A DNA stretch of 12,151 bases from Candidatus Iainarchaeum sp. (GCA_937968065.1 CALBUD010000040.1:1-12151), one strand, 5' to 3'; counted from the stretch's first letter, positions 2,610-9,208 are shown. Notes: generated by a model not told the origin, from the letters alone. Program-made: numbers and translations.

Positions 2610-4538
2610 ATGAATAAATTCAAAGTAGTTTCAAAATTTTCTCCAGCAGGAGATCAGGGAAAAGCAATTGAAGAACTATCAGACTCTTTAAAAAAAGGAA
2701 ATAAATTACAAACTCTTAAAGGTATAACTGCAAGTGGAAAAACCTTTGTTGTTTCAAAGATTATAGAACAACATCAAAAACCAACCCTTGTTCTAGCACA
2801 TAACAAAACCTTAGCAGCACAGCTTTATAGAGAACTAAAAGAATTCTTTCCAAATAATAAAGTTGAATATTTTGTATCATATTATGATTATTATCAACCA
2901 GAAAGCTATGTTCCTCAAAGAGATTTATATATTGAAAAAAACACAAAAATTAATGAAAAAATAGAAGAATTAAGACTTTCTGCAACAGCATCAATTGCTT
3001 CAAGAGAAGACACTATTGTTGTTGCTTCTGTTTCATGTATTTATTCTTTAGGAAATCCAGAAAAATTTAAAGAAATGGGTTTTGAATTATTTGTTGGACA
3101 AAATATTTTAAGACAAGATATTTTAGAAAAACTTGTTAACATACAATATGAAAGAAACGATATGGAGCTTTCACAAGGAAAGTTTAGAGTTAAAGGAGAT
3201 GTTATTGATCTTATTTTAGGATATTCTCAAAATATTATAAGAATAGAACTTTTTGGAAAAAAAATAGATAGAATAACAGAGATTGATAAGATCACTGGTC
3301 AAGTATTATCAAAAATAAATAAACTATATGTTTTTCCAGCAAAACACTTTGTTGTTGATCAGACAACAAAAGAAAAAGCTTTAGAATCTATTGAAAAAGA
3401 GCTTAATGAAGTTTTGCCAAAAATGAATGTTTTAGAAGCACAAAGATTAAAACAAAGAACAATGTATGATTTAGAGATGATAAGAGAAGCAGGATACTGT
3501 TCTGGTATTGAAAATTATTCAAGACATTTTGATGGAAGAAAGAAAGGAGAAAGAGCATACACATTAATTGATTATTTTCCAAAAGATTTTCTTTTAGTTA
3601 TTGATGAAAGTCATCAAACTTTACCACAACTTAGAGCTATGTATGCTGGAGATTTTTCAAGAAAAAAAAATTTAATTGATTATGGTTTTCGTCTTCCTTC
3701 AGCATATGATAATAGACCTTTAAAATTTATAGAATTTGAAAAAATTTTCATGAATAAAGTTATTTTTGTTTCAGCAACTCCTGGTGATTATGAACTTTCT
3801 AAATCTAAAAAAATATCAGAGCTTATTATTAGACCAACATGCTTAGTTGATCCTTTAATAGAATTGCAAAAATCAGAAGGACAAGTAAATCATTTAATAA
3901 AAAATATTAATGAAACAACTAAAAAAGGATTTAGAACTCTTGTAACAACTTTAACAAAAAAACTTGCTGAAGAAATATCAGAATATTTTGCAGAACAAAA
4001 TATAAAAACAAGATATTTACATTCAGAGATTAATACTTTAGAAAGAACAGAGATTATAAGAGAATTACGTTTAGGAAAATTTGATTGTCTTGTTGGTATT
4101 AATCTTTTAAGAGAGGGTCTTGATATTCCTGAAGTTGGTTTAATTGGTATTTTAGATGCTGATAAAGAAGGTTTTTTAAGAGATCAAAGAAGTCTAATAC
4201 AAATTATTGGAAGAGCTGCAAGAAATAAAGATTCAAAAGTTATTCTTTATGCTGATAGAATTACAGATTCAATTAAAAAAGCAGTTGATGAGACAGAAAG
4301 AAGAAGAAATATACAACTTGCTTATAATAAAAAGAATAATATTAATCCTAAGACAATAGTTAAACCAATTGAAGAAAAACATACAGAAATTAAAGATGTT
4401 AAATCTATTCCTAAAAAAGATATTTCAAGAATGCTTGTAGAGCTTGAAAAAGAAATGAGAAAAGCTTCAGATAATCTTGATTTTGAAACAGCTATTACTT
4501 TAAGAGATAAAATAAATCTTTTAAAGACAAGAAAATAA
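2610..4538 (+). CDS. uvrB: Excinuclease ABC subunit B (UvrB)
   Basis: Signatures are [14 protein letters not shown], Walker [48 protein letters not shown] (almost identical to bacterial UvrB), DESH box VIDESHQT, helicase motif [11 protein letters not shown], and a C-terminal UVR domain [12 protein letters not shown]. Confidence 0.95.
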
Positions 4539-4548
4539 AGGTTTTAAA

Positions 4549-4574
4549 AGGTTCAATTCCCGTCAGAAGCTTTT
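4549..4574 (+). repeat. tRNA 3'-end-like direct repeat, copy 1 (AGGTTCAATTCCCGTCAGAAGCTTTT)
   Basis: Identical to copy 3 over 26 nt. It starts 10 nt after the uvrB stop codon. It contains a T-loop-like GGTTCAATTCC, an acceptor-3'-strand-like CAGAAGC, and a T-run. Confidence 0.85.
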
Positions 4575-4613
4575 TAAAAAATACTCTTTGGCAGTGAGTA
4601 AATAGCACTTTTT

Positions 4614-4632
4614 TTCCTTTTGTAAAAAGGAA
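4614..4632. promoter_or_regulatory. Perfect 8-bp inverted repeat TTCCTTTT-GTA-AAAAGGAA upstream of the ATPase gene
   Basis: Read directly from the sequence. It lies about 35 nt upstream of ATG 4667 and is followed by duplicated TATATACT TATA-like boxes. Confidence 0.25.
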
Positions 4633-4666
4633 TATATTTATATACTTTCCTATATACTATATTTAT

Positions 4667-5926
4667 ATGGATAAAAGCTATTTAGAAAGAATAATTTTAG
4701 ATCAGTCAGAAGATCTTAAAAAGATGGATTTAGGTTTATCTAGAGATAAACTTTTAGAATTAGATACTCATATAAAATCAAAAATAAATATAATTATAAC
4801 TGGAGTTAGAAGGTGTGGTAAATCTACTTTATTATTACAGATAATGAATAAATATTATAAAAATAAATTTTATTATTTAAGATTTGCAGATGAAAGATTG
4901 TCAAATATACAAATAGAAGATTATCAAAAAATATATGAAGTTTTCTTAGCTAATTTCAATAAAAATAATATTTTCTTTTTTGATGAAATACAAGGAAAAC
5001 CAAATTGGGATAAGTTTGTTAATAGATTATATGAAACAGGAAATAAATTTTATATAACGGGATCTAATTCAGAACTTTTAAGTAAAGAAATATCTACACA
5101 TCTAACTGGTAGGCATTTAGATATAGAATTATATCCTTTTTCATTTAAAGAATATTTAAATTATAAAAAAATAGATATAGATTATAGATTTACAAAAAAT
5201 TTAATAAAAATAGAAAAAGAACTAAATAATTATTTAAAAAATGGTGGCTTTCCACAAGTGGTTGTTGAAAATAATACTTTCTTACTTGAAGAAATATATG
5301 AAGATATAATTAATAAAGATGTTTTATTGAGATATAATTTAAATGATGTTTCTACTTTCAAAAAAATAGTATTATTTTTAATCTCAAATGTTTCTAAAGA
5401 ATTTTCTTATAATTCAATTAAAAAAATGTATAATTTAGGTAATTCAGATACTGTTAGAAACTATATTTCTTATTTAACAAACTCATATTTATTATTTGAA
5501 TTGCCAAAATATGATTATTCTTTAAAAAAGCAAGAAACTTATGCTAAAAAAATATATGCAATAGATACTGGACTTATAAATAAGATGGCTTTTGGTTTTT
5601 CAGAAAATATAGGTAGATTATATGAAAATTTAGTTTTTATAGAATTAAAGAGAAGAGGTAAAAATATTTATTTTTGGAAAGATAAACTTGATTATGAAGT
5701 TGATTTTATGACTGTGGAAAAAAATAAAGTGACTTCTTTAATTCAAGTAACTTATGATTTAAGTAATTTTAAGACTAAAAAAAGAGAAATTAAAGGTTTG
5801 CTTTCTGGGTTAAAAGAGTTTAAATTAAAAAAAGGAATAATAATAACTAATAATTTAGAAAAAGAAGAAACTGTAGATAATAAAATAATTAAATATATAC
5901 CTTTATGGAAATGGTTATTGGATTAA
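4667..5926 (+). CDS. AAA+ superfamily ATPase, COG1373 type (AAA_14 N-domain + DUF4143 C-domain)
   Basis: It has Walker A GVRRCGKSTLL and Walker B FFFDEIQ with the following PNW. Further matches are ITGSNSELLSKEISTHLTGRHLDIELYPFSFKEY, KIYAIDTGLIN, and the C-terminal GRLYENLVFIELKRR...DYEVDF. This pattern is characteristic of the family. Confidence 0.85.
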   Translation: MDKSYLERIILDQSEDLKKMDLGLSRDKLLELDTHIKSKINIIITGVRRCGKSTLLLQIMNKYYKNKFYYLRFADERLSNIQIEDYQKIYEVFLANFNKNNIFFFDEIQGKPNWDKFVNRLYETGNKFYITGSNSELLSKEISTHLTGRHLDIELYPFSFKEYLNYKKIDIDYRFTKNLIKIEKELNNYLKNGGFPQVVVENNTFLLEEIYEDIINKDVLLRYNLNDVSTFKKIVLFLISNVSKEFSYNSIKKMYNLGNSDTVRNYISYLTNSYLLFELPKYDYSLKKQETYAKKIYAIDTGLINKMAFGFSENIGRLYENLVFIELKRRGKNIYFWKDKLDYEVDFMTVEKNKVTSLIQVTYDLSNFKTKKREIKGLLSGLKEFKLKKGIIITNNLEKEETVDNKIIKYIPLWKWLLD

Positions 5927-5971
5927 AAAGAGTGCTTTTAACTCAAGGTTCAATTCCTGCCAGAAGCTTTT
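5926..5971 (+). repeat. tRNA 3'-end-like direct repeat, copy 2 (extended 46-nt form; 26-nt core at 5946-5971)
   Basis: The core is AGGTTCAATTCCTGCCAGAAGCTTTT, with 2 substitutions relative to copies 1 and 3. The 20 nt upstream (AAAAGAGTGCTTTTAACTCA) align with the copy 3 flank at 15/20. It starts at the last base of the ATPase stop codon. Confidence 0.85.
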
Positions 5972-6097
5972 GCTAACGCAGGTTTGGAGTCTGCAGTTTT
6001 CAGTCTGGAGAGCTTTAAACAGTTGGTTTACAGCAATCTTATTCTATAAAGTATCAAAAACAAATTCTTGCAAAGATTCCTTTAATCTTTGGAAAAT

Positions 6098-6137
6098 CTA
6101 TAAAAAGTCATACTTTTTCTATAGAAGTCATACTTTC
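6098..6137. repeat. Tandem 20/21-bp direct repeat CTATA(A/G)A(A)AGTCATACTTT, two copies
   Basis: 6098-6118 is CTATAAAAAGTCATACTTTTT and 6119-6137 is CTATAGAAGTCATACTTTC. An 8-bp inverted repeat CAAAGATT/AATCTTTG lies just upstream at 6071-6091. Confidence 0.6.
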
Positions 6138-6166
6138 TAATATTAATTCTAATATAGATAAGATAA

Positions 6167-6501
6167 ATGAGAATGATAGGTCTGTTAAACTTACAAGGTT
6201 GATTTTAAGGTACCATATCTTTTAAAAGAAGAAAAAGATATTAAAAAATATATTAAAAACATTAAAGAGAGTGAGGATGTTTTTATTGATAATAATATAA
6301 AAAAAAATTAAGGATTTTAATGATTTTAAAGAGGTAATATCTAAGTTTAATCAAGAATATAATAACACAGATGATTATCTTGTGTTATTTACAAAAGCTT
6401 TAGAGGTTAATGTTTTTAATAGTATTAAGGACGAGAATTTTAAAAGATTTATAATAGATAATGATCTTTTTAATAGGTTGAAGTATTATTGTGAAAGATG
6501 A
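6167..6501 (+). pseudogene. Possible decayed gene: three consecutive open segments in frames 2, 3 and 1
   Basis: ATG 6167..TGA 6202 gives MRMIGLLNLQG. 6204-6308 gives FKVPYLLKEEKDIKKYIKNIKESEDVFIDNNIKKN. 6301-6498 gives KKIKDFNDFKEVISKFNQEYNNTDDYLVLFTKALEVNVFNSIKDENFKRFIIDNDLFNRLKYYCER. The last two would fuse if one A were removed from the A9 run at 6299-6307. No recognisable domain. Confidence 0.3.
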
Positions 6502-6570
6502 GTTATTTTTCTAAATTATTGATTGAAAATAGTTCAGAAAGGATTTTTAAATGTTTTGTTATTCTGTATT

Positions 6571-6612
6571 TATAGCTATTGTTTTATAGCTATTGTTTTA
6601 TAGCTATTTTTA
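6571..6612. repeat. 14-bp tandem repeat TATAGCTATTGTTT x2 plus a degenerate third copy, in the promoter of the pilin-RCC1 gene
   Basis: 6571-6584 and 6585-6598 are identical. 6599-6612 is TATAGCTATTTTTA. The repeats are followed by TTTAAAATAT at 6609-6618 and ATG 6636. Confidence 0.8.
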
Positions 6613-6635
6613 AAATATTTAAAAATGTAGATTAT

Positions 6636-7577
6636 ATGATTAGAAAAACTAACTTGGATTTTGATAAAAAAAGAAAAACAAGCTCTCAACCTTTTTTAGA
6701 AAAAAATGTTGACGAAAAAAGAAAAGCAATCTCTCCATTAGTAGCAACCATTCTAATAATAGTTGTTGCTGTTGCAATAATAATGATTGTTTTAAACTGG
6801 GGAAAAGCTTTTACACAAGGAGGTCTTCAAGATGCAACAAATGTTACAAGTTTTACAACTTCTGATGCTAGTAGTTTTATTTTCAGACCAGATATTAAAG
6901 GACAAACTTTAACCTTTACTTATTCTCCACCAGCTTCTTTAAAAAGTCAAACAATAATTGTTGATAGATTTTCAGTTCTTGGTTATGAAGGAATAATAGA
7001 TATTGATCCTCCAGTAACTTTAAGAGAAGGTTTAACTGGTATACAAAATTTAGATTTATCTTCTTTAGATATTCAAGAAAGAACAATAACAATTGTTTTT
7101 TATACAACAAATAATGAAATCATTACTTTAAAAAATATTGATTTAATAAATTATGTTCCTCCAGAATATGAATATTATTTATATGGTTGGGGTTCAAATT
7201 ATTATGGGAAATTAACGTTTTTTTTAAATTTAGATGTAATATCTGCTGGTCAGGAACATTCATTAGGTATTAGAAACGGAGAGCTTTATGCTTGGGGTTA
7301 TAATCAGTATGGTCAACTTGGAGATGGCACAACCTATAATGAACTTGTTCCCACAAGAATCGGAACTGATAGTGATTGGACAATGATCTCTGCTAGTGGA
7401 AGTCATTCATTAGGTATCAGAAACGGAGAGCTTTATGCTTGGGGTGAGAATGTTTATGGTCAACTTGGAGATGGCACAACTGATGATAAACTTGTTCCCA
7501 CAAGAATTGGAACTGATAGTGATTGGACAATAGTCTCTGCTGGTTATGAACATTCATTTGGTTTAAAAAATAGTTGA
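6636..7577 (+). CDS. Secreted/surface protein: archaeal class III (type IV pilin-like) signal peptide + unknown middle domain + C-terminal RCC1-type repeats
   Basis: KRKA|ISPLVATILIIVVAVAIIMIVLNW matches the archaeal pilin N-terminal pattern: a basic residue, then A/G, then xSPxxxTxLLI and a hydrophobic helix. The C-terminus carries RCC1 blade signatures HSLGIRNGELYAWGxNxYGQLGDGTT..LVPTRIG twice, plus a degenerate GWGSNYYGKL. ATG 6636 is preferred over the track's TTG 6579, which lies inside the tandem repeat. TGA stop at 7575-7577. Confidence 0.75.
   Translation: MIRKTNLDFDKKRKTSSQPFLEKNVDEKRKAISPLVATILIIVVAVAIIMIVLNWGKAFTQGGLQDATNVTSFTTSDASSFIFRPDIKGQTLTFTYSPPASLKSQTIIVDRFSVLGYEGIIDIDPPVTLREGLTGIQNLDLSSLDIQERTITIVFYTTNNEIITLKNIDLINYVPPEYEYYLYGWGSNYYGKLTFFLNLDVISAGQEHSLGIRNGELYAWGYNQYGQLGDGTTYNELVPTRIGTDSDWTMISASGSHSLGIRNGELYAWGENVYGQLGDGTTDDKLVPTRIGTDSDWTIVSAGYEHSFGLKNS
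7257..7577 (+). repeat. 147-bp (49-codon) in-frame tandem repeat encoding RCC1 blades: two full units plus a 27-nt decayed third
   Basis: Units at 7257-7403 and 7404-7550 differ at about 20 positions by hand alignment and share identical runs of 19-27 nt. The third unit (7551-) decays, and its TGA stop aligns with the GAG codon of NGELYAWG. Confidence 0.85.
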
Positions 7578-7660
7578 ATAAAATTTAAAAAACTTGATAA
7601 AAACAAGAAGATTTTTGCATTCTATTACCTTGGATATAGATATATATTTCTACTTGTTAT

Positions 7661-7706
7661 AAAAGAACGCTTTTCACTTTAGGTTCAATTCCCGTCAGAA
7701 GCTTTT
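7661..7706 (+). repeat. tRNA 3'-end-like direct repeat, copy 3 (extended 46-nt form; 26-nt core at 7681-7706)
   Basis: The core is identical to copy 1. The extended part AAAAGAACGCTTTTCACTTT aligns with copy 2. It lies between convergent genes, 103 nt after the RCC1-gene stop and 15 nt before the stop of the minus-strand gene. Confidence 0.85.
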
Positions 7707-7721
7707 ATTATTTTTTAAAAA

Positions 7722-8441
7722 TTATTTTGCTTCTGGAACAAAATTAAAATTTTTATCAAGTCTATATCCATTTTCAGGAGTAAAATAAACTTCAAATCCA
7801 AATTTTTTTAAAATATTTAAAACATTAAAAACAGTTTTTTTATTTTTTTTATTCCCTTCCATAGTGGATGCTTTATGCACTAAAAACCTTGTAATTTTTT
7901 TTCTTGTTTCTAACAAGCTTTTATTTTCTGAAATTGATTTTTGAATTTCTTGTGTTATATTTTTCATAAAAACATGATTTATCTTTATTGTTGTATACCC
8001 TAAAACTTTTTTTTCAGGATTTACAATTGCAATTACTTCATATCCATGTTTTGTTTTAGAATATTTAAAAATACCATCTATAAAAAGAAAAAGATCAGGA
8101 ATTGCATTTCCTTTGTTAAATTTTGGATTTTTAGAAGAATCTTGTAATTTAAAATAAAATAAACTTCCTTTTTGTCTAATATCTTTAGTTCTTTTTTTAG
8201 ATAATCTTTTTTCTAAAATATTTTTAAAAATTACATCATATCTTTTATTATTTATAACACTAAAAGAATTTAATCTATCTCCAGAAACATTAATTGCTTT
8301 TTCTCCAGGATGTTTATAAAAAGTTATTTTTCTAAGATTATTTATATCAATTTTTTTTAAACTATCAATTTCTGAAAGATATTTATCTCTTCCAATTTTT
8401 GGTTTTGGAATTATTCTTGGTATTATTTTTTTTGGTTTCAT
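7722..8441 (-). CDS. Hypothetical basic protein, paralog A of a tandem pair (possible inactive MPN-like member)
   Basis: 239 aa. Its ATG overlaps the upstream paralog's TGA (ATGA at 8438-8441). It shares with paralog B the N-terminal MKP..KIG, then PG, (A/I)(I/L)P, YxxIxxVxP....GYTTI(K/R)IN, and the C-terminal G(F/M)E(V/I)xFTPExGYRLDxxFN. Where paralog B has HTH and PSLSD, this protein has FYF and PDLFL. Confidence 0.6.
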   Translation of the reverse strand: MKPKKIIPRIIPKPKIGRDKYLSEIDSLKKIDINNLRKITFYKHPGEKAINVSGDRLNSFSVINNKRYDVIFKNILEKRLSKKRTKDIRQKGSLFYFKLQDSSKNPKFNKGNAIPDLFLFIDGIFKYSKTKHGYEVIAIVNPEKKVLGYTTIKINHVFMKNITQEIQKSISENKSLLETRKKITRFLVHKASTMEGNKKNKKTVFNVLNILKKFGFEVYFTPENGYRLDKNFNFVPEAK

Positions 8442-9061
8442 TTTTCTCTTATATAATTAAATCTATTATCTAATCTATAACCTGTTTCAGGAGTAAAAAC
8501 AATTTCCATGCCAAGACTTGGTAGCATTTCAAAAAGATGTATTTTATATTCTGCATTTTTTTTATTTTTAGAATTTAAATAAGGATTTATTTTTTCAATA
8601 AATTGTTCTGGAGTAACTTTGATATTATTAATTCTAATTGTTGTATACCCAATAGGTCTTCCATTTTTAGGATCAATTACAGAAATTATTTGATATTTAA
8701 TTGTTCTTTTTCTATCTTTTATAAAAGAAACAATATCTGATAAAGAAGGAAGAGCAATTCCATATTCTTCTCTTTTAGAATTTCTTTTAGTTATGTGAGT
8801 GTGCAAAAGTTGTGCTCTATTTTCAAGATTTCTAATTTTTCTTCTTATATTTTCTTTTATTTTTTCATTAAGTATTCTTTCAAGCTTAGCTGTGTTTTTT
8901 CCAACATGATTTTTTTGTCTATTATTAGAAACATCATGTATTCCTTTACCTGGTACTGAAAGTAATTGTATTTCTTTATTTTTAATATCTGCATCTTTTT
9001 TTAAAACATTTTCAAATTTATTTTTACCAATTTTTGATTTTCTAAATATTACAGGTTTCAT
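8438..9061 (-). CDS. Hypothetical basic protein, paralog B of a tandem pair (possible divergent JAMM/MPN+-like metalloprotease)
   Basis: Start moved to ATG 9061 (207 aa, MKPVIFRKSKIG...), which aligns with the paralog A N-terminus. On the minus strand TTTAAAATA begins about 33 nt upstream of this ATG. The protein contains H87-T-H89, P105-S106-L-S-D109 and IISVID130-P131..GYTTIRI. Confidence 0.6.
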   Translation of the reverse strand: MKPVIFRKSKIGKNKFENVLKKDADIKNKEIQLLSVPGKGIHDVSNNRQKNHVGKNTAKLERILNEKIKENIRRKIRNLENRAQLLHTHITKRNSKREEYGIALPSLSDIVSFIKDRKRTIKYQIISVIDPKNGRPIGYTTIRINNIKVTPEQFIEKINPYLNSKNKKNAEYKIHLFEMLPSLGMEIVFTPETGYRLDNRFNYIREK

Positions 9062-9208
9062 ATATATAAAATAAGGTAAATAGTATTTTAAATGTATGAG
9101 CTTTAATGTAGATATACATAAAAAGTTTGTTTTCTTAAACCTTCTTTTTTTAAACATATTGCTTTACATTAGATATATAAACTAATTTTTTTAAAAAAGG
9201 TGTTTTTT

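Follow-up and report, generated by a model that had tools for sequence, protein, structure and literature searches.

Suicidal integrases of the SSV1, pTN3 and pT26-2 type, which carry the Pfam domain PF16795, bring about integration into archaeal tRNA genes and the partition of their own gene (PMC8371274; Badel et al. 2020, PMC7253208). Central to this 'suicidal' architecture is the placing of the attachment site attP inside the integrase gene int, such that integration splits the gene into two parts, int(N) and int(C) (PMC8371274, PMC7253208). A 2021 review of the archaeal tyrosine recombinases presents suicidal integration as characteristic of hyperthermophiles and nowhere mentions the DPANN archaea (PMC8371274). 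In Caldiarchaeum subterraneum, fragments of tRNA-Thr(GGU) have been scattered by a mobile element (Sugahara et al. 2012, PMC3293823). The present analysis concerns a contig of Candidatus Iainarchaeum sp. (GCA_937968065.1 CALBUD010000040.1:1-12151), taken in its entirety (12,151 nucleotides (nt), G+C about 23%) and referred to below as the window, in which three direct copies of a short tRNA-like repeat bound accessory genes downstream of uvrB. We hold with considerable confidence that these repeats are relic attachment (att) sites left by serial integrations of elements with a PF16795 SSV-type integrase specific for tRNA-Thr(GGU).

A repeat shared with the 3' end of tRNA-Thr(GGU)

The repeat, AGGTTCAATTCCYGYCAGAAGCTTTT, is 26 nt long and lies at 4549-4574 (copy 1), 5946-5971 (copy 2) and 7681-7706 (copy 3), on the + strand in all three cases; 200 dinucleotide shuffles of the window give 0 matches to it. 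Copies 1 and 3 are identical, copy 2 differs from them at 2 positions, and copies 2 and 3 have in common a longer, 46-nt form (5926-5971 and 7661-7706, respectively) at 85% identity. Copy 1 begins 10 nt past the stop of uvrB, copy 2 lies 19 nt past that of an ATPase gene and copy 3 lies 103 nt past that of an RCC1-repeat open reading frame (ORF). The three direct copies with their positions and strand, the pattern of identity among them, the 46-nt form and the closeness of copy 1 to uvrB had all been picked out in the original prediction, made from the DNA alone, and all of them hold. So does the absence of an intact target tRNA from the window: ARAGORN, with introns also allowed, and Rfam at E<=10 return no tRNA or RNA family at any of the three copies, and the sole tRNA that these programs find in the window is an archaeal-type tRNA-Tyr at 907-979.

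What, then, is the origin of the repeat? Its 21-nt core, scanned against one genome per species, returned 25 loci. In Akkermansia and in the archaeal metagenome-assembled genome (MAG) SO_2016_LW2_139 (L021 3499-3570, and L007) the core match is the 3' end of an intact tRNA-Thr(GGU), with the core identical at both loci, and the tRNA at a further locus, L039 (5875-5946), differs at two T-loop positions (GGTTCGACTCC). These are the intact tRNAs with the same 3' half that the original prediction had suggested seeking in relatives. Several Iainarchaeota/DPANN MAGs, together with Candidatus Forterrea multitransposorum (L019), have no tRNA at the core match and carry the same extended form as copies 2 and 3 of the window, AAAAAGAGCGCTTTTAACCTTTGGTTCAATTCCCGCCAGAAGC. 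A viral origin of the repeat is not supported, the 21-nt core having no exact match among the IMG/VR contigs.

Set against this tRNA, copy 1 would be the att core proper, running from the T-loop to the 3' end of tRNA-Thr(GGU) and on into an oligo-T, and would form the left boundary of the inserted array. Copies 2 and 3 in their 46-nt short form hold more of the tRNA. The left arm of the short-form consensus aligns to tRNA-Thr positions 21-36 as AGAGCGC----AACC-TTGGT, with a score of 21 against 9.9+-1.9 for shuffled sequences and 0/2000 shuffles reaching it, and directly after this arm the short form resumes at T54, having lost 18 nt between the anticodon GGT and G52-G53-T54. The anticodon 3' side, the variable loop and the T-stem 5' strand (positions 37-53) are consequently missing. 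Because the arm aligns to the body of the tRNA and is then followed by this deletion, the 46-nt form is read, on the alignment, as a truncated tRNA-Thr(GGU) pseudogene with an 18-nt internal deletion; copy 2 would be such a pseudogene at the attL-type junction of the next element, and copy 3 an attR-type junction at the right boundary of the array. A derivation of the arm from int(N) codons was rejected, the alignment being matched by 88/2000 shuffles as against 0/2000 for the tRNA body.

Integrase remnants and the two repeat-bounded segments

The connection between this tRNA and an integrase is seen at loci where both are intact. In L007 and L021 the tRNA-Thr continues in frame into an Int(C) ORF (SATLVRLRSRVQFPPEACQEISLDAF...SGIRVLEG...CRKWFF...GSNHYL), which occupies 12-884 in L007. 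The other half is found in L020 (327-560) and L029 (2-175) as a short int(N) ORF with a ribbon-helix-helix (RHH)-like N-terminus, which runs through a 47-nt tRNA-Thr 3' part and then stops (...NLSTLVRLRSRVRLPPEA, stop). When the two halves are joined, 66/66 database homologs of the resulting protein carry PF16795, the SSV-type archaeal integrase domain. Most of the 66 are Int(C)-sized, at 200-290 amino acids (aa), and three full-length members of the family (P0061, P0062 and P0066) share an MPRPK... N-terminus; the reconstitution of Int(N) with Int(C) is therefore valid. Low-GC Iainarchaeota/DPANN MAGs commonly contain PF16795 integrases of this kind, with tRNA-Thr(GGU) as attP (for instance L039 5875-6834, L021 3499-4376 and L020 327-560).

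Remnants of both halves are present in the window, and in this respect the original prediction, which reported no integrase, was wrong. Directly after copy 2, a PF16795 SSV-type int(C) pseudogene at 5972-6222 (+ strand) has a frameshift near 6022 and breaks off after about 70 codons. A hidden Markov model (HMM) of the integrase family matches the stop-to-stop frame 6019-6222 (E 1e-11 to 7e-11, score 39.8), and since the remnant spans only HMM positions 21-78 of 272 the catalytic part has been lost; a weak colinear fragment at 6189-6308 (E 0.4) is a possible continuation. The closest homolog, P0034, belongs to L039 (GCA_964526055.1), where the intact tRNA-Thr(GGU) of 5875-5946 leads in frame into an Int(C) gene that is likewise intact and encodes 277 aa. 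Across the junction of the two, window 5947-6208 and L039 5925-6187 are 93.5% identical over 263 nt, and the homology starts precisely at the GGTTC core: further left L039 has the real tRNA whereas the window has the short arm. An attR for the L039 element was not found within 6.9 kb downstream. Just before copy 3, at 7585-7655 (+ strand), lies a remnant of the 5' end of int(N), covering codons ~4-27, which is followed by a deletion of about 100 nt and then by the short arm. It is about 88% identical to the int(N) 5' end of L020 over 70 nt, with a local score of 94 against 19.8+-3.0 (0/500 shuffles), a tblastn E of 0.01 and an N-terminal HMM E of 0.04. Apart from these PF16795 remnants, Pfam and the family profile detect no tyrosine recombinase in the window.

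With an int(C) remnant at copy 2 and an int(N) remnant at copy 3, the 1.76-kb segment 5946-7706 is to be read as a decayed integrated element composed, in order, of attL, a pseudogenised int(C), a truncated pilin/RCC1 gene, a pseudogenised int(N) and attR. Its presumed cargo, an RCC1-repeat ORF (Pfam RCC1) at 6579-7577 on the + strand with a likely ATG at 6636, begins with an archaeal class-III (pilin-like) signal and contains 147-nt tandem repeats at 7237-7562, and it looks truncated because it stops after about 2.2 of them. The N-terminus of this ORF shows a weak match (24.7% over 158 aa) to a large pilin-signal protein encoded in L006 and in a 20.5-kb composite of L029 and L003, referred to below as the composite. 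A perfect 14-nt tandem repeat (TTTATAGCTATTGT x 2.9) occupies 6569-6608, directly upstream of the likely ATG.

The other segment, 4549-5971, is flanked by att copies, contains an AAA_14/DUF4143 ATPase (4667-5926, + strand; PF13173 and PF13635) as its sole gene and has no recombinase of its own, as in a cis-mobilisable element (CIME). The ATPase, which would be the cargo of this cassette, matches the PADLOC candidate defence family PDC-S01 at E 8.5e-114. Homologs of 64-67% identity sit between repeat copies in L020 and in L001/the composite, and in all three genomes a copy precedes the ATPase gene, degenerate in L020 (1687) and in the composite (4345), with a different chromosomal context each time.

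The uvrB hotspot and arrays in related genomes

The interval in which the array lies is bounded by conserved genes. On its left is uvrB itself (2610-4538, + strand, with Pfam UvrB domains), whose product is 91.6% identical to UvrB of a close relative, Candidatus Forterrea multitransposorum (CP045477), and whose third-codon identity to the Forterrea gene is 73%. On its right is a conserved hypothetical gene at 7722-8441 (- strand) with homologs in relatives, the first of two overlapping paralogs (the second at 8438-9157, also on the - strand) that encode 239 aa each and are 28% identical. Neither has a Pfam family, and the pair is conserved beside the RNase_T-type exonuclease gene in Forterrea, L034, L036 and L037. 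An additional 3' fragment of one paralog lies at L019 5353-5592 in Forterrea. A GCTTCTG heptamer at 7731-7737 was considered as a permuted 5' acceptor strand and set aside, since it is part of the conserved 7722-8441 ORF and since 12 kb is long enough for a 7-mer to turn up by chance.

What lies between these flanks differs from one relative to the next. In Forterrea (L019) a decayed copy directly past uvrB (6804-6784, 16/21 match), orthologous to copy 1 of the window, is followed by a gene for a 318-aa methyltransferase-like protein, by a perfect short-form copy and by a partial third copy fused to a fragment of the 7722-like gene; beyond this come five unrelated genes and then a full 7722-like gene. 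The junction of copy 3 with its downstream gene in the window is orthologous to this decayed partial copy and gene fragment. A second Forterrea-like strain (L034) has a 75-aa ORF in the region and is without the methyltransferase cassette, and L037 has an ORF, a short-form copy, a CYTH gene and then the 7722-like gene. In L036 the site is empty: uvrB and the 7722-like gene converge, their stops are 5 nt apart, and neither a repeat nor a tRNA lies between them. The original prediction had asked for an empty site in which uvrB joins the downstream locus through a single copy of the repeat: L036 supplies the joined flanks and lacks the copy. Because the window, L019, L034 and L037 carry different genes between conserved flanks and L036 carries none, the interval from uvrB to the 7722-like gene is a hypervariable hotspot in which repeat copies bound the variable genes.

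The repeat is not confined to this locus. Other Iainarchaeota loci have same-strand copies too, three in L020 and nine in the composite (eight by a fuzzy scan and a decayed one at 4345), and across the loci 26 copies are observed against 0.25 in shuffles. The composite has one int(N)-attR junction in the 47-nt form, at 145, and its further copies, at 4345, 5833, 11970, 13679, 14244, 16136, 17766 and 19175, have 0 to 8 mismatches in the core. Among the proteins encoded in its cargo are an ABC transporter, an ATPase with 64% identity to that of the window, a 1931-aa pilin-signal protein and a membrane protein, and ATPase, copy, pilin-signal protein and copy follow one another there in the order that the window shows. 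The idea that decay grows with distance from the tRNA-proximal end of the composite is refuted by the copy at 4345, which is near that end and has 8 mismatches. Among the cassettes of other arrays, one in L020 (656-1597) encodes a protein with a Fic-type motif (HPFLDGNKR) and one in L028 (464-3853, reverse strand) just one secreted repeat protein, of 1129 aa. In one MAG the repeat lies at the end of one contig (L001, 5678-5698) and at the start of another (L006, 34-54); the repeat therefore breaks short-read assemblies, and arrays of repeat-bounded cassettes are probably under-represented in MAGs.

Besides the two paralogs, the genes of the window encode a PolB-type exonuclease, SodA, UvrB, the AAA_14/DUF4143 ATPase, the RCC1-repeat protein, the RNase_T-type exonuclease and deoxyhypusine synthase. 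The G+C content falls to just about 14% at 1001-1800, a region that includes an ORF (1057-1695, 212 aa) with no Pfam match. Exact-protein look-ups with the window genes, made for population variants, returned no match.

Serial integration as the probable origin, its alternatives and known systems

The reading of the repeats as relics of serial integration builds on what is observed directly: the core is a real tRNA-Thr 3' end, remnants of int are present, a homology breakpoint falls at the core, and gene content varies between conserved flanks in relatives. The mobile elements would have encoded a 'suicidal' tyrosine integrase of the SSV type (PF16795) with the 3' part of tRNA-Thr(GGU) as attP within the int gene, and each integration would have split int such that int(C) came to lie beside attL and int(N) beside attR. 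The array itself may have been built by successive integrations whose target was an existing pseudo-tRNA copy and not a functional tRNA gene. That copies 1 and 3 match perfectly would be the mark of a recent recombination in this lineage; the orthologous Forterrea copies have decayed at about the neutral rate. Finally, the integrase-less ATPase cassette could have been moved, or could still be moved, by an integrase supplied in trans, which would make it cis-mobilisable. Of the three explanations offered by the original prediction it is thus the first, remnants of tandem integrations, that is supported, by the identity of the repeat with the tRNA-Thr(GGU) 3' end and by the int(C) and int(N) remnants at copies 2 and 3.

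Several points weigh against this reading. The 12,151-nt contig holds neither an intact integrase nor an intact tRNA-Thr, and no intact target tRNA is regenerated at attL, where the left arm of copy 2 is a truncated pseudogene. The empty site in L036 is without tRNA and without any att-like sequence, so that canonical integration into a tRNA gene does not account for the first entry at the locus. Copy 3 has the short form as its left arm and not the 47-nt attP expected from an intact int gene, and extra deletion or conversion steps must therefore be assumed. The arrangement of int(C) at attL and int(N) at attR, found for copies 2 and 3, does not extend to the segment between copies 1 and 2, in which tblastn and HMM searches detect no int remnants, and at E<=1 none were detected beside the other short-form copies in the composite, L019, L020 and L028 either.

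A bolder explanation, which extends serial integration and does not contradict it, and which we regard as possible although rather unlikely, is that of an active cassette system. Here the 46-nt short form would be a portable recombination site defining integrase-less cassettes (surface proteins, the defence ATPase, methyltransferases) in Iainarchaeota/DPANN, and a suicidal integrase acting in trans would excise circles and re-insert them at any copy, which could found arrays where no tRNA gene ever stood. A scan of metagenomes with the core gave eight further contigs, three of them with two copies each, and within a single metagenome L028 and L029 share the left flank and the repeat and then diverge, while L026 and L029 share the repeat and the right flank and differ in their left flanks, such that flanks are re-assorted precisely at the repeat. 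At least six junctions in that population have an identical 38-nt short form between unrelated flanks, with neighbouring copies decayed at 5-8 of 21 positions. Most cassettes consist of a single ORF or a few in the same orientation, with a copy behind them, the unit of copy, leader, ATPase and copy recurs in three different chromosomal contexts, and copies 1 and 3 of the window are identical despite the near-neutral decay of the orthologous Forterrea copies, for which the uvrB third-codon identity provides the yardstick. However, neither circular or excised forms nor a precise presence/absence polymorphism turned up, the arrays examined have no linked integrase gene, split remnants aside, and the short form, as a putative substrate, lacks the left half of the T-arm inverted repeat. 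Gene conversion could also make copies identical, and so could homologous recombination between strains, a process documented for Forterrea (PMC5905446).

A further proposal of the original prediction was that the repeat is a tRNA-like 3'-untranslated-region element, selected as an RNA processing or termination signal (through RNase P, tRNase Z, the CCA-adding enzyme or a terminator) and travelling with its gene. Each copy in the window does follow a + strand ORF and has an oligo-T, an archaeal terminator signal, at its end, and incidental termination is therefore plausible. Selection for such a signal is nevertheless very improbable. The acceptor/T-arm minihelix of the original prediction has no thermodynamic or covariation support: the 46-nt forms give folding z-scores of +0.37, -0.20 and +0.63, no signal of structure, and the GCTTTT/AGAAGC and GG/CC pairs, counted over 13 distinct copies, are paired in 89.4% of cases as against 88.5% in column shuffles and 87.5% when the register is slid by +1, so that the minihelix was rejected. 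The repeat lacks a T-stem 5' strand; in related arrays decay has reached 5-8 of 21 positions in many copies, so that constraint is not uniform, and a copy is also found upstream of the ATPase gene in three genomes. Moreover, int(N) and int(C) remnants adjoin the copies, and the tRNA/int homology starts exactly at the core. Least credible, to the point of being almost negligible, is that the copies belong to a functional tRNA-Thr gene, split, permuted or intron-rich, whose halves escape the standard finders: split tRNA genes are known in DPANN and other archaea and the short form keeps pieces of the D-stem and anticodon-stem region, but ARAGORN (with introns) and Rfam are blank, the short form has lost the anticodon 3' side, the variable loop and the T-stem 5' strand, neither a matching 5' half nor a complementary leader came to light, each locus has at least three copies, and close relatives have a normal intact tRNA-Thr(GGU).

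With serial integration as the preferred explanation, what appeared to be a tRNA-like repeat without an integrase becomes a readable history, that of a hotspot between uvrB and a conserved gene to which suicidal-integrase elements would have repeatedly delivered accessory genes, among them a candidate defence ATPase and a surface protein. It also implies that the influence of PF16795 integrases, which are usually discussed in connection with hyperthermophiles, extends to the small genomes of Iainarchaeota and Forterrea-like archaea; the paper on Forterrea mentions neither integrases nor these repeats (PMC5905446). The shared truncated tRNA-Thr att, the identical copies within one population and an array outside a tRNA gene suggest, in addition, that integrase-less cassettes may be exchanged in trans. 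If true, this would open a new path for gene flow among DPANN archaea and would be an archaeal, tRNA-derived counterpart of integron and CIME arrays.

How does the locus compare, then, with the systems already described? With the SSV-type elements it has in common a core that is the 3' part of a tRNA, an attP inside int, int(C) at attL and int(N) at attR, remnants in direct repeat and the assignment to family PF16795. Unlike those systems, the host is a low-GC DPANN archaeon (Iainarchaeota or Forterrea-like) and not a hyperthermophile, the 'tRNA' on the attL side is a truncated pseudogene, the locus is not a tRNA gene and the int remnants are heavily decayed. Tandem accretion and CIMEs are known from ICESt1/ICESt3 of Streptococcus thermophilus, and the resemblance lies in the integrase-less, att-flanked segment 4549-5971 adjoining an element of the same att specificity and in the three direct att copies; the integrase here, however, is an archaeal suicidal one and not that of a bacterial integrative and conjugative element (ICE), and mobilisation of the segment is hypothetical. 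Integron cassette arrays, with IntI, attI and attC, have been reported in archaeal MAGs too, and an integron-like array was the remaining alternative of the original prediction. Part of that idea fits, namely the short, mostly co-oriented cassettes each with a repeat behind it, the variable content among close relatives, the integrase-less att-flanked segments and the flank swaps at the repeat, which are compatible with cassette-like behaviour. Membership among integrons nevertheless fails, because there is no IntI in the window and no attC-type folded hairpin, and the repeat is derived from a tRNA and linked to a PF16795 integrase. Caldiarchaeum subterraneum offers a parallel in the same tRNA species, whose fragments were duplicated and dispersed by an integrating element, and in the heterogeneity of the population; there the fragment is the 5' one, with intron gain and an element of pNOB8-type plasmid-like dinucleotide composition, whereas here 3' fragments bound cassettes and the integrase is of the SSV type. 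SSV-type integration into tRNA genes, the partition of int and tandem remnants are all established (PMC8371274), and the sole unusual element of the present locus is its short-form att.

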